Shown piece after piece: positions 11,161 through 61,960 of a stretch of DNA of 64,000 bases. This stretch comes from Azolla caroliniana (Eukaryota; Plantae; Polypodiophyta): positions 16,430,001-16,494,000 of the forward strand of contig JBHGNT010000016.1 in NCBI GenBank assembly GCA_043228905.1, given 5' to 3'. The translations under genes were made by a program, and so were the position numbers. Positions within the stretch are counted from its first letter, which is position 1; every line of letters starts with the position of its first letter. The notes below the pieces were generated by a model that saw only the letters and a list, made by a program, of their open reading frames with translations, searched no databases and had not been told where the DNA came from.

Positions 11161-11175
11161 TTGAAGACTGTTAAA

Positions 11176-12570
11176 TGGACCCAAGTCGAGTTACAAAAGG
11201 CCAACGCACGCATTGCGGAGTTGGAACGTAACGCAACTACGGCACAGTAGGCAGCTGAACCAACAGTCAACGCTGTCGAGACCTTGAGAGAAGAAATTGA
11301 GGCCCAGACCACCATTGCCTCAAAAGAAAAACGGGTCGTGCAACTGGCGGAATCAGAGATTGACGATCTCAGCTCCAAACTTCGCCAGTCCTCGGATGGA
11401 GAAAAGGATATCCGGGCCAACGGCCAAAAGGTAGTGAGGACCCTTGAAGAGAAACTCGCAGCGGAGGCAGCACAGCACACTCGGACGAAGGAAGAAAACA
11501 CCCAATTACGAGAGGAAACGAAAAAATCGAAAGCAGCGATTGTGGGACTCTAGGCCTTATTGGAGAAGAAGAAAGTAGGGTTTGACGAGCAGCTTCTAGG
11601 GGAACAAGAGAGAAGGCACCAGCTCGAAATCCACCTGAACAATGAAATGGGAAAGCTGGAAGAATTACATTCAAAGAAATCTCAGCTATGGGCAGGAATG
11701 AGGAGCACTTATGAAGAAGCGACGGCGGTTAGTAAACAAGAAATCGAAAACCTCAAGAAAACCGTAGAAGAAGCATGCAACCGTTGCCAAGCAATAACCG
11801 ACGATGTGCGCATACTTCTTCAAACAAATCGGGAGAGATTTACGGTGCAATTAAAACCGGTGCTAGACAAAGGCTGGATGGCGTGGGCCACACAAGCGAC
11901 GGAATTGCATACATATTGGACGGACTGGGAGAACTGAAGGAAAGACGGCCGAGGGTTCTACAAACTCAATGAAGAAAGCATTGCGGCCATACGCGAGGAC
12001 CTAGCGCAGGACTATCGCACGCTAGCGGACCAACACTCTGAGGAACTCGCGTAGCTACTAGACGATTTTGGCGAAAGTTAGGAGGACCTATTTCACCAGA
12101 TCGTGCAAGCCGGAAGCACGCGAACAAAAGAGGAATCCATCGCAATACCAATCCCCGATACTGCCGACCAAGAGGAACCTCAACCCATGTCATCGAAAAT
12201 AACCACTCCAGTGGACAGCACGGAACGGCAAGTGGAGCCCCCCGCGATACTAGAAAGCGAAACCACCATCCAATAGGAACCCCAGCCCCATTCACCAGGG
12301 CGTACGACTACGGCCGACACCTCAAAGGAAGTTACGGACGAGACAGAACCTCGACCTACCGCAAGCCCGCCGACGCCGGAACCAACCACAATAGCACAAG
12401 ATGAGCCCGCAGAGCCCGGACCGCCCACACAAGAAACCAACGACACCAGGGGAAGTCCTACCCATCAAGTAATGGAACCACGCAACGACGCGCCTACGGA
12501 CATACGCTATCCCCGAACCCGGACACCCGAGCAGAACCAAACATCAGGGACATTTTGGAGGAAGATTAAA
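11176..12570 (+). pseudogene. C-terminal part of the extra coiled-coil ORF of an Athila/Tat-like gypsy element
   Basis: Heptad-rich translation; WMAWATQATELHTYWTDWEN*RKDG...IREDLAQDYRTLAD aligns with WMKWAQNTAELQLLRADVENRRKEG...IRDELAEDFTALAD of ORF 32165-32698. Confidence 0.75.
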
Positions 12571-12616
12571 GGGGTGGGTCTGACGTGCCATGGCACTGTC
12601 CCACAGGCGTGCCAGG

Positions 12617-13098
12617 TGTTGTCCGCCGGAATAGTAACCGACGGACAGGGAGCGCAGAAATATAGAATATAGTATAAACCTAACGCATGTAAACGGTTCA
12701 CGCGGGAAGCGTGAACAGCTAAAAGACCATGTGTATATAAAGGGCAGAAATCCTCTGATACAGGTAGCGTGTAAATTTTGGTGCATAGAGCGTATCTTAA
12801 TAGAGTTTTATCTTCTTTGATCACTTGCGCAAATCTATGGTTAATCTACTGTGTGTCTGTGATTCTTGGTGGCGTACTGTAAGCACTATAATCGTAAGAA
12901 ACGTAGGCGTGAGTGCGAGTGTTGTGACTAGAGCACTGTCTAGGGAGTTCGGTTGTAGTCATCTCCCTTATACGCTACTAGGATATGGAGAGTTATCTCG
13001 TTACGTATTACGGTATGACGGTACCATTCGTGGCAACGCAGTCACCTTGAGGTCTAGGTCAAAGGACTGACTGAAGACCGTGTTCCTAATCGGTAACA
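12617..13098 (+). repeat. 3' LTR of Athila/Tat-like element
   Basis: TGTT...AACA ends; tatataaagg on + strand near 12734; U5 end similar to LTR starting at 61537 (minus). Confidence 0.75.
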
Positions 13099-31501: not shown

Positions 31502-32019
31502 TGTTAATCCTAGGGGTTGGACAATAACCTAACATAGGGTGTCCACTTAAGACACTTCTCTAAAGGGTGGTACGACAGAATGACTTACGACACAACGCTT
31601 AATTAGACCTTAATTGGTTACTTAGCAATCCATAATTAACACGCGTAAGATATAACAATGACTACAGAACGGTAATCAACACTGAGAGATTAAGACAATA
31701 AGCTCTATTAATTATCCGTTTCTGATTACATTATAACCGGGCCTTTATATAGGTCTCCGGTGCGAAATACAAAACGGTGCCAACTGGCACTTTTACGGGA
31801 TCGGTCCGGATCCGGATCGGCATATCGATTCCGGTCCGTCCGTCCACATCTTCTCATATATTAATATCTCTATTAAGATTACTAATTACAACAATTCCCG
31901 AATAAACTATTCCTTTTCACACTTTGATTTGGACCTCCTTAAGCCTTCTTGTTAGCCTGTAACACATGGCATGCCCGTGGGACAGTACCTTGTACGTCGA
32001 ACCCATTATCCGGCCCTTT

Positions 32020-34775: not shown

Positions 34776-35233
34776 TGTTAGGAATAGTACTAAAGCAGAG
34801 ATGGAATTAGTACTAGAGAAGAGCAGTACTATTAGTACTAAGAGGACGGGACTGCGTAAGACTCCTGAGAGAGAGAGAAAGAGAGAAGCAAAAAGAGAGA
34901 TAGCGAGAATGAGAGAGAGAGAAGGATGATGACAACAGCTCTTATATTATATGAAAGATAAGTACAAATTGGCTAAGAGGCTTAAGACTGGTGTTGAACC
35001 AATTTGGTTCAACATAATGCCTAGTGCCTTCTTTTATAGTGTTGTCAAGAGTAATCCTGAAACTTCTAGAATGTTCCAGAGAAATCTGGAATATACATTA
35101 CTTTCTTATAATAAAACATAAATGAAAATAATATCCAAGGAATTACAATGGATGGTGTGATGGTTAAGAGCTCGACCCATATGCCATAAGGTTATGGGTT
35201 CGAGTCTTGCCATATCATGACACTATCTCCCCC

Positions 35234-38200
35234 TTAAAGACGACGAGTGGAACGAGTCGGCGCTGATTGCGGACCGGGTTTGTCCGGATACTTTCGATGG
35301 AAATCAGCAAGCAGATCCTGAGCATTGGCAACATGCTCGACGGGTTCCCAAGTGCGTTCGCTCGAACTATAACCAAGCCAATCGAGCAAATAATAAAGTT
35401 TGTTGCGAATAAGTTTGGAATCGAGGATGGCAGCAACTTCATACTCCGGGCCGACGTCCAACTCCAGCGGGGGCGGCGGTAGTGTAACATGATCGGGAAT
35501 GGTGTTTGCTTTATAAGGTTCAAGAAGAGAACAATGGAAAACCGGATGTATCTGAAGCTGTGGAGGGAGATCGAGGCGAAATGTGACATCATTAACCTTA
35601 CCCGTAATACGAAAAGGAGTGAGTCGTCGATAATCCAACTTGTCACACGGTTGAGTAGTCTTGATGTGACGATGTAAGAGCCATACTCAATCTCCGATGG
35701 CAAAAGAGAGGGGAAGTCGATGACGATCCGCGTAAGTCTTCTATGTTTGTTGAGCATGACGAAGATGAGTCGAGAGATCTGTTTGGATCTTGCGTAGTCT
35801 CTCCAAATGATCCCCGGCACGAGGATTGGTAGGTAACTCCGGGGTGTCGATCACCGACCAGCGAGGATGAGAACCGGTATAAGCGTAGAATGGGGAGACT
35901 CGAGTCGAGGAGTGAACAACATTATTATACGCAAACTCTGTAAAGTGGAGAATCTCGGCCCAATCGTCCTGTTGATAACTCAGGAAACACCTGAGATATT
36001 GCTCCAGCTTTTGGTTTGTTCGTTCCGCCTGCCCATCGGTTTGAGGATGGTACCCGGAGGAGAGGTTGCAAGAGACCTTGAGCATCTTGAAGAGATGCTG
36101 CCAAAATTTGGAGACAAATTGCGGTCCTCGGTCACTGATGATACTGTCTAGGAGGCCATGATGCCGAAATACCTCACGCATGACTAGGGTGGCGGTTTCC
36201 TCGCTAGTGATGGCCTTAGTACACGGAACAAAATGTGCCATCTTCGTATATCGATTGACGACGGTTAAGATAGCATCGAACCCCTGCGAGACCGGCAAAT
36301 CTGTGATAAAATCAAGACAAATAGACTGCCACGGCTTACTTGGAATCGGTAAGGGTTCCAACAAACCATATGGATGGTGTCGTGGCATCTTTGCTCGGCA
36401 GCAAGCATCACAAGTCTGAACGTAGTCGTCGACAAAACGACGCATGTGGGGCCACCAAAAAGATCGCTGCACTAGCTCCAACGTCTTAGTACTACCGAAA
36501 TGTCTCGCCGTATGGGTGTCGTGACAATGTTGGACGATTTGAAGGCGGCAGGAGCAATCGGGGACATATACGCGCTTTTTAAAGAATAACAAACCATCAT
36601 GATATTCGAATTGTCGGTAGTCAATACCTGGTTGTTAAGACTGAGAACAGGATGCCCGAGAAGTATCAATGTGGGCCAGGATGTCTTGAGCAAAACTATC
36701 CGTCTTCAAGTTTGCACGTATGTCATCGGTAATCCGTGAATCCATCAGGGTGTGAAAAATCTGCGTCGTGTGCAATCGTGTTGGCCCCAAGATTACTTGC
36801 TTTTGATTATCAAATGTTGGATCACCAGGACGAGGTGCAAGATATGAATGCCGTGATAGTGCATCTGCTTTTCCTTGCTGCTTCCCCGGTCGATATGTGA
36901 TTTTGAAGTCGAAATGCGTGAGGAATTGCGCCCACCGAGCTTGCCGTCGATTTAGTACGCGAGTGTTCTGGAAATAAGCAAGATTTTTATGATCACTAAA
37001 GACAATGACCTGATGTGGAGAGCCCTCTAAGAAATGCCGCCATTGCACAAATGAATCCACGATGGCTAATAACTCCTTGTCATGTATTTCGTAGTTGATT
37101 TCCGCGACATCGAATTTGTGCGAATGGAAAGCCACCAGATGCAACTCTTCTTTATCTCCTTGTTGAGAAAGGATGCTACCGAGGGCGAAATTTGAAGCAT
37201 CGGCCTCCATGATGAATGGTTTGCTGGTATCCACATGAGCTAGAATCGGTGCTGATGTAAAGGCTTTCTTAAGATGCCGAAAAGCCATATCTGCTTCGAT
37301 GGACCAAAGAAATGCTTGGCCCTTCTTCGTAAGTTGTGTGAGGGGTAAAATAATCTTTGAATAATCCTGTATAAACTTACGGTAGAAGTTAGCAAAACCT
37401 AGAAAACATTGTACATCTCGTACCGACCGTGGAATTTGCCACTCTAGTACAGTTTGAACTTTAGCTGGATCCATGGCGATGCCCTTTGAGGAGATGACGT
37501 AGCCTAGAAATTCCACTTGCTTGCAGTCAAAGCTACATTTTTCTAGCTTGGCATAAAGACCATTCTCGCGGAGCCACTTTAGTACTAATAGTACATGAGA
37601 ATCGTGCTCTTGCTGGGTCTTCGAATAAATCAATAGATCATCCAGATAGATGATCAAATAGATATCCAAGAGGTCTCTGAATATATCATTTGCCATGTGT
37701 TGGAAGACTGCGGGTGCATTGGTTAAGCCGAACGGCATAACAATATACTCGAAATGCCCATACCGCGTGCGAAAGGCGGTCTTCCATTCATCTCCCGGTC
37801 GGATCCGCACGAGGTTATACGCTCCTCGTAGATCGATTTTGGTAAAAAACTTGGCACCATTAACTCGCTCTAAAAGACTTGGTATAAGAGGAAGTGCATA
37901 CCTATTCCGGATGGTGACCTTATTCAATCCGTGGTAATCAACGACGAGACGAAGTGAGCCATGTTTCTTCTTGACAAAGAAGATGGGTGCACCGGCCAGA
38001 GATTTCGAATGACGGATGAACCCGCTTGCCAAGTTCTCCTCTATGTAGGCTCGAAGGACTTCTAACTCGGTGGGTGACAAGTTGTAAATTGGTCCCCATG
38101 GTGGCTCGGTTCCTGATTGTAAATTGATGGGACAGTCATAGGGACGGTGATGAGGAAGGGTACCGGCTTTTACCTTGTCAAATACATCGGCATAAGGATG

Positions 38201-39789
38201 ATATTTTGCCGGAAGTTGTACTGAGGAGTCCTTCTTAATAGTGTTGGAAGGATGTACTGATATTGCAAATAGGAACATTGCCTCCTTGTGTCCTTCTTCG
38301 CGTAATTGATGGAGTGAAATGGTCGAAACTCGGTGAGTAGATTCTTGGGGTGGTCGATATCAGACTTCTCTTGTTCTCCAATCTATGGCTAGATTATGTA
38401 ATTCAAACCAAGGTAATCCTAGGACAATGGGATGCTCTGGACTACTACTTATATTAAATGATATTACACACACAAAACTACCTAGGACAACTTGAATGGG
38501 TTCTGATTCTTCTACAATATTCCCGGAAGCAATGGGACGACCATCAATGACTACTACAGATGCGGGACAAGGAAGTTTTCTTAGGGATATCTGAGAAGCT
38601 TGGGCAAAATTTCGATCCATGAAACAGGAATTAGCTCCGGAATGTAAAAGTGCTAGGACGGGTACTGGGAGAGTACTTTTAGTACTAACAATGACTTGGG
38701 CTAGGAACACATTGCTAACTTGCTTGGAAGGAATGGAATCACTAATGGGCTGTACAGATCTAGGGCTGCTGTCCAACCAAACGGCTCCTATTTTGGATGG
38801 ACTCAATTGTTTAACTCTTCATCTAATTGACTAAGGATTTCAAATTTGTTTGAGATACTTGGGCTATTAGTACTATGAATACTATCTGACACTCTATTAG
38901 TACTATTAATACTATCTGACACTCCGAAGGGAAGAATTGACTCGGGTTTAGTACAGGCAACGATTTGATTTACCTGTCTTCTTGGCCTATGGGGACAATT
39001 GATGGCGATATGCCCTGGTCCACCGCAATAAAGACATAATCGATTGGCACGTCGTCGTTGCTTTTCTTCTTCCGATAACGGGCCGCGTCGACGCATGGTA
39101 TCTTTCTCCATCGGTGTCGAAGTATTTGCTTGAGGTATGTCTCGTGCAAACGGTTTAGCCACGACTGCGGCGTAAGTGGGCTTTGGCCTAGAGCGTGGTA
39201 TCTGTAATTGACGTTCCGAACGCCGTTCGAAAAGGCGGTTGTCACATCGGACCGCTCAACCGATTGCCTCCGTAAGAGACTTTGGTTCTTCGGGGAAAGT
39301 TAGAAGTAGATCTTTGACATCGTTTCGCAGGACATAGCAAAACTGCTCCATTAGTGCTTGATCATCCCAGGGTATATCTGAAGCGAGTAGGCGGAAATCC
39401 GCAGCATAGGCAGAGGCTGGACGATCGCCTTGACGCAATCGCCGGATCTTCTTGATCGCCGTCCTGATGTTGTCGGTGTCTCGAAAGCAGGCTTTAAACT
39501 CACTAATAAAATCTTCAAAGCTATTAAGCAAGGGCGATTGTTTTTCTAGAAGCGGAGCGAACCATGCTAAGGCTGAGCCGCTAAGCAACGTGCCAATTAA
39601 GCCGACTCGGGATGCATTAGTGGGATATCGGGAAGGATGCATTTGGAGGATTAATCGTACCTTATTAAGGAATCCCCTGAATTGCGATCGCGTTCCATCA
39701 AATTTCACAGGAAGTCCAATCTTCGGCTCTTTATGAAATCCTTGGGGACTTGATCCTTGTTGTTGCAATGCTGCTTCGAGTTGTTGCAC
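35234..39789 (-). pseudogene. gag-pol of chromovirus A, with frameshifts and stops
   Basis: ORFs 39256-39789, 38803-39162, 38360-38806, 36635-38278, 35741-36592, 35234-35638. Confidence 0.93.
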
Positions 39790-40346
39790 TCCTAATGCTA
39801 ACTGTCGTGACTCTTGAGTAGGAAGCAGAGAGAGAGCGATGGCGATAGAGATAACGATAACGATAGAGATGGCGAGAGCGGTAGAGATAGCGATAGTGAT
39901 AGCAAAAGAGAGTGAAAAAGGGAGAGAGTGCGAGAGAGAGAAAAGTATAAGTGAGAGATAAGAAATGGGAATGAGATTATATTATGAGAAAGAAGATTAC
40001 AAGGAGTAGGCTAAGGGCTAAAGACTGGTGTTGAACCGAATGAGTTGTGATGAGTGTATGGACTCTTATTTATAGGCCCTTATGGAGTATTCTAGAATGT
40101 TCTAGAATATTTTAGATATTTATGAATAATAATAATAATAATAAATATAATCATGAAATATTCAAGAGCATTCTAGAATAATCTAGAATGTTCTAAATAT
40201 CTCGTAATAACTAAACATATAATTATTATGATTACATCTCACATATGTTATTACAATGGTTAAAGTACAATATGTAAACCAAGAGGTTATGGGTTCGATT
40301 CCTGGTTCGCCAAGATGAATGTCATGATAAGCCAAGATGTATGTCT

Positions 40347-43300
40347 TCATGACATTATCCCCCCTTTTCGATGACGAGTTGCACGAGTCGGAAGAAAAGA
40401 TTTCAGACTTGGTTTATGAGGATATTGGTTGTGAAATGCAACAACCATGTCGGAGGCATTGGCAAGATGTTCGGCAGGCTCCCATGTTCGATCATTAGGT
40501 GTATAGCCTAACCAATCAACCAAGTAGTATAGTTTGTTGCGAATGATCTTGGAGTCGAGGATAGCGGCAACCTCATATTCAGAGCCATTGGAAACGTCAA
40601 TTGGAGGTGGGGGAGGTGTAACACGACCCGGAATAGAGCTCGTTGTGTAGGGCTCCAAAAGTGAAACATGGAAGACCGGGTGAAGACGCATATGAGGAGG
40701 AAGATCAAGACGAAATGTCACATCATTGATCTTACCACTTATGACATATGGGCCAAAACGTTGATAATCCAATTTGTAGCAAGGTCGGGTCGTTTTAATG
40801 CTACCTTGTAAGAGCCATACACGATCGCCTACTTGAAATGTAGTCGATGAATCACGCCGATGACGGTCAGCAATCTTTTTTTGAGTGTTTTGGGCTTCAC
40901 ATAAATGATGCAAAAGCATATCCTGAACTTCTTGGAGTCGAGTGAGCCGATCTTCAGCAGCTGGGTTTTTTGGGAGTTCAGGATGTTCAAGCATCGTCCA
41001 ACGAGGATGGTACCCAATGTTTGCAAAAAATGGGGAATATCCAGTAGAAGAATGCTCGGAGTTGTTATAAGCAAATTCTGCCAAAGGTAGTAAATCCACC
41101 CAATCATCTTGTTGATAGTTGACAAAACAACGTAGATATTGCTCGACTGTTTGGTTGGTGCGCTCACTCTGCCCATTAGTCTCTGGATGGTAACCGGAAG
41201 AGAGTTTACAAGAAGTATGTAAGAGTTTGAACATGTGCCGCCAAAATTTCGAGATGAATTGGGGACCCCGATCACTGATAATATCATCCGGAAGACCATG
41301 ATGGCGAAACACCTCCCGCATGAGTAAATCAGCTGTCTCTTGACTAGTAATGGTCTTTGTGCATGGAAGGAAATGTGCCATCTTCGTAAAACGATCGACA
41401 ACCGTGAGAATCGAATCAAATCCCTTGGAAGGTGGAAGATCCGTAATAAAGTCCAAGGAAATAGATTTCCATGGGCTCTCCGGAATAGGCATTGGCTGTA
41501 ATAAGCCATATGGATGATGTCGAGGCTTTTTTGATCGGCAACATGTATCACAGCTACGAACATAATCCGTAACAAAATGGCGAAGCCGTGGCCACCAATA
41601 TCGGCGAGAAATCAACTCAAAAGTCTTGTGGATGCCGAAGTGTCCCGCCATTGGTGTGTCATGACATTGTTGCATGACTTTGAGTCGAGAAGGACCGTCA
41701 GGCACATACAAGAGAGTTTGTCGAAAAAGTAACCCATCATGCCAACTAAACTGGGTGTAGTCTAGACGAGGATTTTGAGTTTGGGAGCTAGATGCACGAT
41801 TTGGGATAATATGGCTCAAAACCTCTTGGGCGAACGCATCAATCGCAATCTGCTCACGAATGGAATCAAGAAGCCTTGAATCTCCCGGTGTGTTGATGGT
41901 ATGCATTGCCATTATTCGTAGACGATCAGGACCTAAGAGGATTTGCTTTTGGCTTTCAAATGCGGCCTCTCCAGGTTGAAGTTCCATATACGAACGTCTA
42001 GATAAAGCATCTGCTTTTCCTTGTTGCATCCCAGGGCGATATAGAATTACAAAATCGAAACGAGTTAAGAACTGCGCCCAACGAGCTTGTCGTCGATTCA
42101 AGACTCGAGCACTTTGAAAGTATGTTAGATTTTTATGATCATTGTAGACAATAATCTGCTGAGAAGAACCCTCCAGAAAATGACGCCATTGTTGAAAAGA
42201 ATCCACAATGGCAAGAAGCTCTTTGTCGTGAATCTCATAGTTGATTTCTGCGGCTTCAAATTTTCGTGAGTGAAAAGCCACCGGGTGCAGTTCACCATCA
42301 TCACCAATTGGGATAGTACACTTCCGAGTGCGAAATCCGATGCATCAGCTTCAAGTATAAAGCGCCTCATTGGATCGACATGGATTAAGATTGGTGTGGA
42401 TGTAAATGCTTGCTTTAAACCCTCAAATGCAGAGTTCGCATCTATACTCCATACAAATGGTCGATTCTTGTGCGTCAGTTGAGTGAGGGGCAACACAATT
42501 TTTGAATAATCTTTGATGAACTTGCGATAAAAGTTTGCGAACCCCAAAAAACATTGCACATCTCGCACGGACTGTGGTGTTTGCCAATCCAAAATTGTTT
42601 GAACCTTTGATGGATCCATAGAGATGCCATTTGAAGAGACTATGTACCCCAAAAACTCCACTTGACATTGGTCGAAACTACACTTCTCCAATTTTGCATA
42701 GAGACCATACTCTCGTAGCCGTTGCAAAACTTGGCGAACATGTATATCATGTTCTTCTTGAGTTTTTGAGTAGATCAAGATATCATCCAGGTAAACAATG
42801 ATGAAGATATCGAGGAAGTCTCGAAAAATATCATTCGCCATATGTTGGAAGACTGCTGGTGCATTCGTGAGGCCAAAAGGCATCACTGTGTACTCAAAAT
42901 GACCATAGCGAGTGCGGAACGCCGTCTTCCATTCATCCCCAGGACGAATTCGAACAAGGTTGTAGGCACCTCGAAGATCTAACTTCGTGAAATACTTTGC
43001 TTCACTGAGGCGTTCTAGAAGGCTTGAGATCAATGGGAGAGCATATCGGTTTCTAACGGTCACTTTATTCAAGCCTCGATAATCCACGACCATACGAAGC
43101 GTACCATCTTTCTTCTTAACGAAAAAGATGGGTGCACCAGCAGGAGATTTTGAATGTTGGATAAAACCATTTGCCAAGTTCTCATTGATATATTCTCGAA
43201 GAACCTCTAACTCCGTGGGCGAAAGATTATAAATTGGTCCCCATGGAGGCTCTTTTCCTGGCTGCAAATCAATTGGGCAATCATATGGTCGATGCTCTGG

Positions 43301-43951
43301 TAGTCTATTAGCCTTCACCTTATCGAACACATCGGAGAATTCTATGTACTTCTTTGGTAGTTGGACCCCCAATTCTTGTGAGCTAGATGAGGGAGTTGCT
43401 AAAACCGCAAATACCATCATGTCTTCCTTTCTTCCATCCTCTCGTAATTGATGTATAGAGATTGTTGAAATTGTGGGGGATCCTAGATCCTTAGTTGGAG
43501 CTTCAAGAGACTTGGATTGTACGGTGACCTCTTCAATAGTTCTTTTTCTCCAATCAATGGTTGGGTTATGTAACTCAAACCAAGGAAGACCAAGAACTAG
43601 AGAGTGCTCCGGACTACTAATGATGTTAAATGAGATGACACTAGCCAAATTACCTAGGACTACACGAATTGGTTCAGACTCTTCGACTATATCTCCTGAT
43701 GCTATAGGGCGACCATCGATGACTCCTACAGCTACTGGGTTTGGGAGTTTTTTCTAGATGATGTTTTGAGTCAATGCAAACTCGTGATCCATGAAACAAG
43801 AATTGGCTCCGGAATCTAGGAGGGCAGAGGCTAGGGCGCGATGACCTGTAGATGTGCTAAGCTCGACTTGTGCAGAAAAAACTCTACTAACTTGATTTGA
43901 TGAAATGGAACCACAACTAGGTACTGACTCTACATAACTAGGATGGTCCAA
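40347..43951 (-). pseudogene. pol (PR-RT-RH-IN-chromodomain) of element B; one stop at 43754 and a 1-bp deletion near 42307
   Basis: LLDSGA, MPFGLTNAP, YLDD, DASD, HDKELLA, HPETNGQSER, FGPY, YEVAAILDSK...WEP. Confidence 0.95.
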
Positions 43952-45104
43952 CCAAATGACTCCTATTTTGGCCGGACTTATTCTTTAACACATCCTCTAA
44001 TTGGCTCAAGACATCAAATCTATTCTCATGGCATGGGCTATTAGGCTTAGTACTTAAGTTATTAGAAGTGATAGTAGAACTTGATGTAGGGTTGTCATGT
44101 GCACTTACTTGGTAAACTTGACGCCTGGGTTTATGTGGACAATTCACAACTATATGTCCTGGACCACCACAGTAGAGGCATAGGCGATGCGCCCGACGTC
44201 GTTGTTTCTCAGCATCTAATAAGGGCCCTCGACGTTGTGTCGACTCTATTTCCATCGGAGTGGGACCATCCCTCGTAACGGGTCTAGAACCTTGTGGCGG
44301 TGTGGCGACTATAGAAGCGTATGTCTGTTCCGGTTGGCGGCGTAACATTTGTTGACGTTCAGAACGTCGCTCAAATAGGCGATTATCACATCGCACAGCT
44401 CGGCTAATAGCTTCAGTAAGAGACTTTGGATCTTCATGGAAAGTAAGAAGAAGATCTTTGACATCGTTACGCAAACCCTGACGGAATTGATCCATTAAGG
44501 CTGCCTCATCCCAAGGGATGTCGCATGCCAAGAGACGGAAATCTGCGGCATAAGCTGAAGCGGGACGATCTCCTTGTCGGAGTCTTCGAATCTTGTTTAT
44601 TGCAGTCCTAGTGCTATCCGTATCTCCAAAACTAGCTTGAAACTCCTTAACGAATGCCTCGAAATCCTCCAGTAATGGTGATTTCTTCTCAAGAAGTGGT
44701 GCAAACCTTGCTAACGCTGTACCGCTTAGCAAGGTTCCTATTAATCCCACACGGGCAGCATCAGTTGGATACCGATTGGGATGTAACTGAATCACCAAAC
44801 GAACTTGATTCAGGAAACCTCGAAAGAGAGATCTGGTACCATCAAACTTGGCAGGGAGGCTAATCTTTGGTTCCCTTGGGGAGTTTTGAACCCCCGCCGC
44901 TTGTTCTCGTAATGTTAATATAGTAGCCTCAAGTTGATGAACCCGTTGTGATAACTCCTCATATTGATGAGCTTTCTCAGTACTGACTTGTTGAAGATCC
45001 CCGAGTAGCCTTTGATTTTCTTGCTCTAATGCCACAAACTTAGTGGTGAGCATATCGAGCTCCGAAAGGACACGCATATACTCTTGCTTGCTGACCGACT
45101 CCAT
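43938..45104 (-). CDS. gag of element B (388 aa)
   Basis: PAKFDG, LRQG..SAYAADF, PMEIE, knuckle CLYCGGPGHIVVNC. Confidence 0.92.
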   Translation of the reverse strand: MESVSKQEYMRVLSELDMLTTKFVALEQENQRLLGDLQQVSTEKAHQYEELSQRVHQLEATILTLREQAAGVQNSPREPKISLPAKFDGTRSLFRGFLNQVRLVIQLHPNRYPTDAARVGLIGTLLSGTALARFAPLLEKKSPLLEDFEAFVKEFQASFGDTDSTRTAINKIRRLRQGDRPASAYAADFRLLACDIPWDEAALMDQFRQGLRNDVKDLLLTFHEDPKSLTEAISRAVRCDNRLFERRSERQQMLRRQPEQTYASIVATPPQGSRPVTRDGPTPMEIESTQRRGPLLDAEKQRRRAHRLCLYCGGPGHIVVNCPHKPRRQVYQVSAHDNPTSSSTITSNNLSTKPNSPCHENRFDVLSQLEDVLKNKSGQNRSHLVGPS

Positions 45105-46921
45105 AACCGCGGGGGAAAAAGAAAGAAGGATAAAGAAGAAAGCTTGCTAGGGTTATTGGAGAAAGGGAAAAGAAATATTCGGTTCAAATTGTCGTGACTC
45201 TTGAGTAGGAAGCAGAGAGAGAGCGATGGCGATAGAGATAACGATAACGATAGAGATGGCGAGAGCGGTAGAGATAGCGATAGTGATAGCAAAAGAGAGT
45301 GAAAAAGGGAGAGAGTGCGAGAGAGAGAAAAGTATAAGTGAGAGATAAGAAATGGGAATGAGATTATATTATGAGAAAGAAGATTACAAGGAGTAGGCTA
45401 AGGGCTAAAGACTGGTGTTGAACCGAATGAGTTGTGATGAGTGTATGGACTCTTATTTATAGGCCCTTATGGAGTATTCTGGAATGTTCTAGAATATTTT
45501 AGATATTTATGAATAATAATAATAATAAATATAATCATGAAATATTCAAGAACATTCTAGAATAATCTAGAATGTTCTAAATATCTCGTAATAACTAAAC
45601 ATATAATTATTATGATTACATCTCACATATGTTATTACAATGGTTAAAGTACAATATGTAAACCAAGAGGTTATGGGTTCGATTCCTGGTTCGCCAAGAT
45701 GAATGTCATGATAAGCCAAGATGTATGTCTTCATGACACTAACTCCCCATGTTGTTGCTGCGTTTGTTGTTTTTCTAGAGCGATATGTTGCAGATCCCCT
45801 ATCAGTCGTTGGTTTTCTTGTTCCAAGGCAACAAATTTTTCTTTTAAGCACTATAGCTCGGAGAAAACGGATTGATATTCTTGGGCGCTAACAGTAGCCA
45901 TAGTATAGGAAAAAGGGTAGGAGGATGAGGGAGAACGACAAGTAGGTTGGAGGACCGGCAAAATTGGTTCAAACTGTCAGGAATAGTACTAAAGCAGAGA
46001 TGGAATTAGTACTAAAGAAGAGCAATACTATTAGTACTAAGAGGACGGGACTGCGTAAGACTCGAGAGAGAGAGAGAGAAAGAGAGATAGTGAGAATGAG
46101 AGAGAGAGAAGGATGATGACAGCAACTCTTATATTATATGAAAGATAAGTACAAATCGGCTAAGAGGCTTAAGACTGGTGTTGAACCAATTTGGTTCAAC
46201 ATAATGCCTAGTGCCTTCTTTTATAGTGTTGTCAGGAGTAATCCTGAAACTTCTAGAATGTTCCAGAGAAATCTGGAATATACATTACTTTCTTATAATA
46301 AAACATAAATGAAAATAATATCCTATGAATTACAATAGATAGTGTGATGGTTAAGAGCTCAACCTATATACCATAAGGTTATGGGTTCGAGTCTTGCCAT
46401 ATCATGACAGCTACCGTAGCTATTTCTTTGCAGCTTCAGATAGCGTTTGGCAGTCCATTTCTGCGTCGAGGTCGGAGAGCGTTGGCGAGGTTTGGTGGTG
46501 GGGAGAGTGCAAGAGAGAAAGTTCTGAGGGAGGGGGTTCACTGTGTGCGAGCTCTCTACGATTGATCTTCACGCGTCACTCTGCGTCTGTTCTCCTTGGT
46601 TCGCGATAGGAGAAGGTCTCGATGCGTGGGGCTTTTTCTCTCTGCATCTTGGCGCCTTTTTCGAGCCTCCGCATGTGCAAGTCGTGTACTATAATAGCAT
46701 TGCGTGCCATGTGGGGGTGGTTTAATGTCCTATTCATAGCCCCTCGTACCCTTTTTGACGTGCCTCTTTACTCCTCGTGTGCATGGTCGTTTCCACCACT
46801 CCTTTTCATGATTTATTTGTGACGGTTTGCCGTCGTTAAGCTTTCCCCGGTTGGCAACTCGTGCTCCCCCTTACCGGCTTGGTGGTAGCCGTTTTCCTCA
46901 CGGGTTGCCGTCGTGGTTGGC

Positions 46922-60808: not shown

Positions 60809-61960
60809 ACGTTCTTTTTGCTTCGTCTTCTGAAGGCACTCTTGTTAACTGACGCCATAGATTTTGGAACCGTAAGTTGAATTCAACGACAAACTCCTAT
60901 TGCAGCTGCAGAATAGTGTAAACATCGCCAATAATCTCACATTGCGGAATGCTTCGGTGGAAGAAGCGGAGAAACGTTGAGCTTAGTTCGTCGACGCAGG
61001 CCAAAGTTATGAGATCGATCTGGGAATGCCAATGGGCGGCGCGTCCGTCGAGGGTGAGGCCAAACTCCGCGATTTTGGATGCATGGGCTTTAGCTTCTGG
61101 CAGCCGTTGTGACAGATGGTTTGCGTTCCACACATTTAGAAACGATTGTATGTGGCCTTCGGCGTCGGTGTCTCCGCTGAAGCGGGGGTATGAAAAAGCC
61201 ATTGTCATAGACTGACTAGTGTTGAGGTAAATACTGTCGGCACGATGTGGGGAGGTTTGTGATGTGGTGGTGGTTTCACTATACTGGTGAAGTGGGGATA
61301 GGATGTCTTGCTGGGTACCGCTTTGCTCGGTGAGCGTCGACTCAAGTGTATTTTCCGAGAACGTCGGATGTAGTCGTTGAGGCATCGTTTTTGCACAGTG
61401 TGTTCCTCCACCTTGCGGGTTATGGATCTAGTCTACGGTCTATCCTAAGGGATTGGTTCACTAATGCGTCATCGGCTAAGCATCCATTCTTTGATTATCG
61501 GCTGTGAGAATCACAGATCACCAGGCGTGCCAAAAGTGTTACCGGCTAGGGTAAACATGGCCTACCATGAGTTCTTCGGGGTACGCCTCAAGAAGATTGC
61601 AATGTAGAGAATGGAGGGTGTATACAGCCTATCACGGATAATTGTGAATGTATTACGTCACGTGGCGTAAGAGAGGTGAGAAGCGGTATTCGGGAGACGG
61701 CTACAACCGAGCTCCTTCACACAATACGTCACTTTTACACAAACACGCTTAAGCAATTACCACACATAGGGGATACGTAAAAGAAGAGTACAGACACAAT
61801 AATTCGGAAACAACACAACTATATTTCAGAGATTACCAAAAAAACTACGCTAGTTCTTACAAGTTTCCCATGCCCTTTATATACAGGTTCATGGATGGTT
61901 ACGCTTGGTGCGTGAACCGTTACAGACATTTACATTGCAAACTGCTTACTCATTATTATG
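60809..61960 (-). mobile_element. 5' end of Athila/Tat-like element: gag start (60897-61385), tRNA-Arg PBS 61519-61532, partial 5' LTR from 61537
   Basis: YPRFSGDTDAEGHIQSF...LDGRAAHW gag motif; PBS tggcacgcctggtg on minus strand; LTR U5 similar to 13040-13098. Confidence 0.8.

Follow-up and report, generated by a model that had tools for sequence, protein, structure and literature searches.

To our knowledge, priming of plus-strand DNA at a polypurine tract (PPT) counts as an invariant step in retroviruses and LTR retrotransposons, and the PPT is taken as universal. Lineage-specific departures in primer use are known, such as self-priming in Tf1 and Tcn1 and half-tRNA priming in copia; the three primer types all serve the minus strand, and none is described for the plus strand in the available text of the source (PMC6317226). 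In yeast Ty3, a bipartite primer-binding site (PBS) holds one tRNA on the RNA for minus-strand priming, and a PPT primes the plus strand (PMC5371799, accessible part). Drosophila gypsy carries two sites complementary to tRNA on the RNA, of which the 3′ one binds the anticodon and T stems and is dispensable (PMC1635307, accessible part).

The Ty3/gypsy lineage described here, from the fern Azolla caroliniana, resembles canonical elements such as Ty3 in its gag–PR–RT–RH–INT order, in a tRNA at the 5′ PBS, in a primer site abutting U3 and in primer tRNA copied into strong-stop DNA; the plus-strand site of Ty3 is a purine tract, whereas the putative one of the Azolla lineage matches a tRNA 3′ end (PMC5371799, same part). 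It shares with gypsy two tRNA-related sites near the genome ends (PMC1635307, as above). Unlike that of gypsy, its 3′ site runs in the tRNA sense, contains the CCA and stands in the place of the PPT. Like the self-primed and half-tRNA-primed elements, it would be a lineage-specific primer departure (PMC6317226, text as available). No tRNA-primed plus strand was found in the literature searched, mostly outside subscription papers, in keeping with the earlier note's statement that it knew of no such arrangement.

The window, a 64,000-nt stretch of the A. caroliniana genome, holds GTCCCACAGGCGTGCCA at 12598–12614 of its + strand, followed by GG and by TG at 12617, exactly as first reported. The copy that carries it is a 5′-truncated fragment only (11163–13098; Table 1). 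A DNA search of its own genome (523 Mb) gave 42 scored matches. Relatives that match only from the equivalent of 12617 are 5′ LTRs, followed by CTTT and a PBS, and 5′ and 3′ LTR partners have 5-bp target-site duplications (TSDs) in common (TAAAC/TAAAC on C13, AGCGG/AGCGG on C14). Because the 5′ LTRs of full-length relatives begin at the equivalent TG with TSDs, the LTR spans 12617–13098, which places the motif outside it, in the internal region. Both readings that the earlier note had set against its own proposal fail here. An LTR start at 12581 disagrees with these 5′ LTRs, and most copies have CG, not TG, at that point; a 5′ LTR in reverse orientation is contradicted by the TATA side, extra ORF and gag-pol, which are all sense to the LTR. 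In full-length relatives gag, RT, RNase H, integrase and the extra ORF all lie on the sense strand of the LTR.

Table 1. Features of the motif-bearing copy and of related elements, in window coordinates.
Feature	Position	Strand	Basis or remark
Internal region, 3′ part, of 5′-truncated Ty3/gypsy copy	11163–12573	+	88% to full-length relatives
Remains of sense extra ORF, coiled-coil-like	11347–12066	+	tblastn to intact 993-aa extra ORF P0002
tRNA-Arg(UCU) T-arm match, positions 49–58	12574–12583	+	8/10 in window copy
4-bp hairpin between equivalents of tRNA positions 58 and 59	12585–12596	+	
tRNA-Arg(UCU) 3′ 18-mer minus one C; putative primer-binding site on minus-strand DNA	12598–12614	+	
2-nt spacer, CCA to LTR	12615–12616	+	NN-TG after 1,940/1,991 17-mers
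3′ LTR, 482 bp, TG...CA	12617–13098	+	5′/3′ LTR pairs and target-site duplications
Same motif, 2 nt before 3′ LTR of second family	31967–31983	−	relatives with tRNA-Arg(UCG) PBS
Ordinary 5′ PBS of related element	61516–61532	−	14-nt match to tRNA-Arg(UCU), 4 nt behind 5′ LTR

The surrounding stretch is itself repeated: five units (C16:16.44–16.77 Mb, L001–L005) at ~80-kb spacing and 98–100% identity constitute a recent tandem segmental duplication. An assembly artefact at the motif junction was considered and rejected, the junction being spanned by contigs from four sequencing runs (two studies, four organism labels), of which one may be the source sample.

By domain content the element is a non-chromovirus Ty3/gypsy lineage, on sequence grounds best left outside the named lineages. 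A Pfam scan of an intact 1955-aa ORF gave the order gag–(PR)–RT–RH–INT, with no chromodomain after the integrase and a single RNase H region, without the aRH domain of Tat elements (Ogre, Retand, TatI–III). LTRs are direct (TG...CA) with a 5-bp TSD, and the 5′ PBS is complementary to host tRNA-Arg(UCU) or tRNA-Arg(UCG). The extra ORF (P0002, L114:1237–4215, minus strand) is intact, 993 aa long and sense to the element; it has no Pfam match, and an Atlas search returned plant clusters together with ATHILA ORF1 as a weak lead (score 0.85). In an RT–RH tree of 42 proteins, built without a curated Athila reference and with P0018 left out for short coverage, the element and its 60–89% relatives form a group (100/100) that joins Riccia and Marchantia sequences weakly (87/75), apart from angiosperm matches.

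Athila/OTA non-chromoviruses are alike in having no chromodomain, a non-Met tRNA primer, a several-base spacer before the PBS, a 3′-side sense extra ORF and a 5-bp TSD (PMC6317226; 10.64898/2026.03.20.713144), as far as the accessible portions of these sources go. Athila has a conserved PPT junction and an Asp or Asn PBS, according to the part of the ATHILAfinder preprint available (10.64898/2026.03.20.713144); the Azolla lineage has neither. Phygy and Selgy differ in a 4-bp TSD, a Trp or Ala PBS and no extra ORF, against 5 bp, Arg and a 993-aa ORF here, and TatI differs in TSD, PBS and extra ORF as tabulated (both PMC6317226, in part).

The motif is, as proposed, the 3′ 18-mer of tRNA-Arg(UCU) minus one C. 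A pattern search gave 17 candidate sites for this tRNA in the host, with an ARAGORN call at 7 of 10 loci scanned; the gene ends read CAGGCGTG or CGGGCGTG, and both forms are found in the motif. The tRNA likeness assigned to 12598–12614 is correct there, but that extent proves too short, and the match continues to 12574 as a T-arm split off by a hairpin. The full layout is T-arm 49–58, an insert of 13–14 nt and bases 59–76, which lack one C where the T-stem meets the acceptor (numbered by us in the standard scheme). Over 147 distinct junctions, related sequences from the same genome and from metagenome contigs, the T-arm segment matches at a mean of 8.2 of 10 positions, compared with 4.6 in an upstream control window. 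The insert forms a 4-bp hairpin whose stem is fully Watson–Crick in 96/147 junctions, against a mean of 28.6 (maximum 41) in 1,000 shuffles, a contrast that is not a probability, as the junctions are related sequences. Eight stem types occur, with compensatory changes. The commonest T-arm changes, G53>A (34/147) and T55>C (42/147), would still pair with the tRNA on the minus strand and would break a T-stem or T-loop formed in cis; among neutral changes, too, G>A and T>C are the most frequent. One locus (L052, C1:895,949) has lost the hairpin cleanly, leaving T-arm and 3′ end almost contiguous. Three others (L039, L066 and L355) have insertions ending in CGACA at the same spot before the hairpin, interrupting the motif region; these may fit an NCGN target preference, Phygy-like in the accessible part of PMC6317226.

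Exact matches to the 17-mer number 1,991 in the genome, a lower bound that leaves out a young family with one 17-mer change, and its reversed control has none; the motif is therefore not a chance match. NN-TG comes next in 1,940 cases, and a longer gap to the LTR in 21, mostly from families with 4–5 nt spacers. Short-LTR, apparently non-autonomous families (L065, L066, L089 and L157-like) have the same 3′ motif, some with 4–5 nt spacers. Selection by the motif is avoided in that young family, which a motif-blind protein search brought up and from which 20 of 43 loci were taken. The motif stands 2 nt before the 3′ LTR in 19 of the 20 (the remaining one has no LTR in range), and neither the motif before a 5′ LTR nor a PPT was seen at any of them. 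Their 17 resolved LTR pairs are 99.2–100% identical, with an exact TSD in 15 by script and in one more on inspection.

That a PPT is lacking beside the 3′ LTR, read originally from one copy, holds throughout: the adjacent 15 nt contain 7–9 purines in 147/147 motif-picked junctions and 7–8 in the protein-picked set. Further upstream of the motif many families are T-rich. A purine-rich run is not conserved across families and is absent from many; the sole one in the window's family (11 nt) overlaps the T-arm match, 38 nt from the LTR. Ordinary PPTs are present in three of four other LTR elements checked within the window. Nested inside the second copy (34776–46409) are two gypsy elements with clear PPTs and, behind the 5′ LTR, a TGAACC-type stretch that is not a tRNA PBS; they are possibly self-priming. 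The motif and its compensatory hairpin persist across families whose LTRs are 67–91% alike or unalignable; family counts are of related sequences and not of independent events. The motif is real, lineage-wide and conserved. A sister lineage with a PPT, sought in the same genome with a 60% relative as query, did not appear, only another motif-bearing family being returned. In IMG/VR, none of three pattern matches encodes a relative, and no related loci came up.

The two ends of the element are uncoupled. Among 20 motif-picked loci, seven have a full matching 5′ LTR within 11.5 kb, one a partial LTR and 12 none. In four of the seven full elements the PBS is TGGCGACCAC, a match to host tRNA-Arg(UCG), yet the 3′ motif is of Arg(UCU) type. 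The earlier note proposed to look for internal regions bounded by inverted tRNA-Arg PBSs with fixed spacing and no PPT; the spacing is mostly 2 nt and the PPT is missing, with the qualification that the 5′ PBS is UCU or UCG by family. With RNA parameters as proxy, the minus strand is predicted to pair with tRNA-Arg(UCU) at −41 to −48 kcal/mol and with tRNA-Arg(UCG) at −26 to −32 kcal/mol. In one family (L109, L120) LTR and PBS are separated by 11 nt, a spacer that would need trimming by integrase.

Copies of the tRNA itself are fossilised at LTR ends. The true tRNA-Arg(UCU) 18-mer, complete with its two Cs and a CCA that the gene does not encode, occurs at 46 places in the genome, all of which we examined: 36 are at right LTR ends, eight at left ends (five events), one is internal in plus-sense gag-pol and one is unassigned. 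Ends were called by orientation, the 2-nt spacer being insufficient (L046 and L108 are right ends). The 36 at right ends represent normal copying of the minus-strand primer; a few of them were assigned from incomplete matches or from ends that are shared. Only something joined to the 5′ end of plus strong-stop DNA, or within reach of it, can template sequence that lies before a 5′ LTR, and for that reason the left-end junctions point to tRNA-Arg(UCU) as primer. m1A58 makes RT stop after 18 nt or misread A58.

On C2, 57/57 nt identical to a host gene plus CCA precede TG and the 5′ LTR of an intact element with a UCG-type PBS and a normal motif at its 3′ end, present three times through local rearrangement. 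On C20, an exact 18-nt stop is followed by TG, a 5′ LTR and a UCG PBS. A second event on C2 is a read-through in which A58 was read as T, with the native 4-nt spacer and a UCG PBS. Two LTR–LTR junctions on C16 have, between right end and left end and in this order, the spacer, a T, the 18-mer and AG; the element has an exact TSD and a diverged motif of its own. The fifth event, on C3, is a tRNA/hairpin chimera before a lone LTR. Four of the five have a PBS behind the LTR and a 3′ motif of their own unlike the tRNA copy, and three belong to Arg(UCG)-PBS families. As a control, copies of tRNA-Arg(UCG) lie at right ends in 30/30 examined (of 100), and the pattern UCG+NN+TGTT has only two matches, one a right end and one unassigned.

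Other junctions record strand-transfer errors. The 100 right-end tRNA-Arg(UCG) 17-mer copies (L310–L339; L389, L409) run into unrelated or internal sequence in the 30 examined; mis-transfers are common at these ends because the PBS matches fewer bases than RT copies. Inverted chimeras (L090, L091, L096, L107, L116 and L119, the last with two matches) join 3′ internal region and hairpin, the full tRNA 18-mer and a reversed right LTR end, which suggests that the design may carry a cost, plus strong-stop DNA sometimes annealing to the motif of the plus RNA. For the fossil junction L123, no bridging contig was found among the matches listed in sequencing runs.

Tying these observations together, we regard it as likely that host tRNA-Arg(UCU) binds the minus-strand DNA and serves as primer for the plus strand. 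RNase H would clear RNA from the minus-strand DNA; tRNA bases 59–76 would pair with the exposed site, one C bulged, and bases 49–58 beyond the looped-out DNA hairpin. RT would extend the CCA through the 2-nt spacer into U3, after which RNase H would take off the tRNA and integrase would trim 2 nt. Speaking against this scheme, RNase H accepts tRNA paired to DNA as a substrate, and the enzyme of this lineage has its four acidic residues. Were removal to fail, RT would copy the tRNA, for 18 nt to m1A58 or by read-through, and leave the fossils. The minus strand would be primed at the normal PBS by tRNA-Arg(UCU) or tRNA-Arg(UCG), depending on family. The idea of tRNA-Arg priming of the plus strand, put forward in the earlier note, survives each test made of it, with the left-end tRNA copies and the two-tRNA families as support.

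The main rival, which we hold to be unlikely, is a self-RNA primer: a tRNA-like piece of element RNA escapes RNase H and takes the place of the PPT by virtue of its structure, and real tRNA is copied through occasional jumps. The motif occupies the PPT position, folding of the plus RNA comes to −10 to −17 kcal/mol and the covarying hairpin fits RNA or DNA. The fossils, moreover, amount to five events, and an RT jump by homology from a retained self-RNA primer to free tRNA could yield them; the L125 junction, where tRNA is joined to internal element DNA with almost no homology, indicates that joining of tRNA ends by RT does not require a proper site. Yet the left-end remnants are true tRNA and not the element's 17-mer, and no self-type remnant was met, with an intact PBS behind the LTR in 0/105 junctions and an LTR–LTR junction with self motif in 0/15 pattern matches. 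Such a primer also leaves the tracking of both host isodecoders and the T-arm unexplained. A tRNA-like structure cut from plus RNA by RNase P/Z to give a primer end seems more improbable still: both T-stem halves and the CCA are present in cis, but the 5′ acceptor strand was not found in two young elements searched, the T-loop takes a 13–14 nt insertion, G53>A breaks the T-stem in 34/147 junctions and no Rfam match exceeds the threshold.

Pairing of the motif with the 5′ PBS, which would circularise or gate genomic RNA or shield it from tRNA fragments while some other, cryptic primer starts the plus strand, has a similarly slender chance. Bridging of the two ends has been described for Ty3 and Drosophila gypsy (PMC5371799 and PMC1635307, accessible parts), and in Arg(UCU)-PBS families motif and PBS share 11 complementary bases (−33 kcal/mol). 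The claim that the motif is the reverse complement of a related 5′ PBS is right to that degree; against 61516–61532 only 11 contiguous bases agree, and the tRNA fits better. In Arg(UCG)-PBS families the predicted duplex of plus motif and own PBS falls to −12 to −17 kcal/mol (RNA parameters throughout), while the Arg(UCU) motif is unchanged. Because those families keep it, end-pairing is not the general role, and the suggestion that the two sites circularise the RNA is largely refuted by them. End-pairing also accounts neither for the fixed 2-nt register to the LTR nor for PPT absence, and known 3′ PBSs, complementary to tRNA on the RNA, have the opposite polarity. Least credible of all is the reading of the motif as a leftover, without function, from a single tRNA capture, the plus strand being primed at the purine run 38 nt upstream. 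The window's family has that 11-nt run, but many families lack it and are T-rich instead, while motif and compensatory hairpin persist; the conservation pattern contradicts a relic.

We therefore return to tRNA-Arg(UCU) on the minus strand. A recently active plant lineage probably uses host tRNAs, often a pair of distinct arginine tRNAs, to start both of its cDNA strands and has given up the PPT; to judge from these sequences, a tRNA-primed plus strand is likely a new variant of LTR retrotransposon replication. If true, the PPT step would be replaceable, as demonstrated by a successful lineage with thousands of copies and LTR pairs up to 100% identical. The elements would offer a natural system for primer selection and sparing by RT and RNase H, and the plus-strand site would be a second target for tRNA-fragment silencing. 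Annotation tools that score PPTs or read PBS orientation would miss or misorient such elements.
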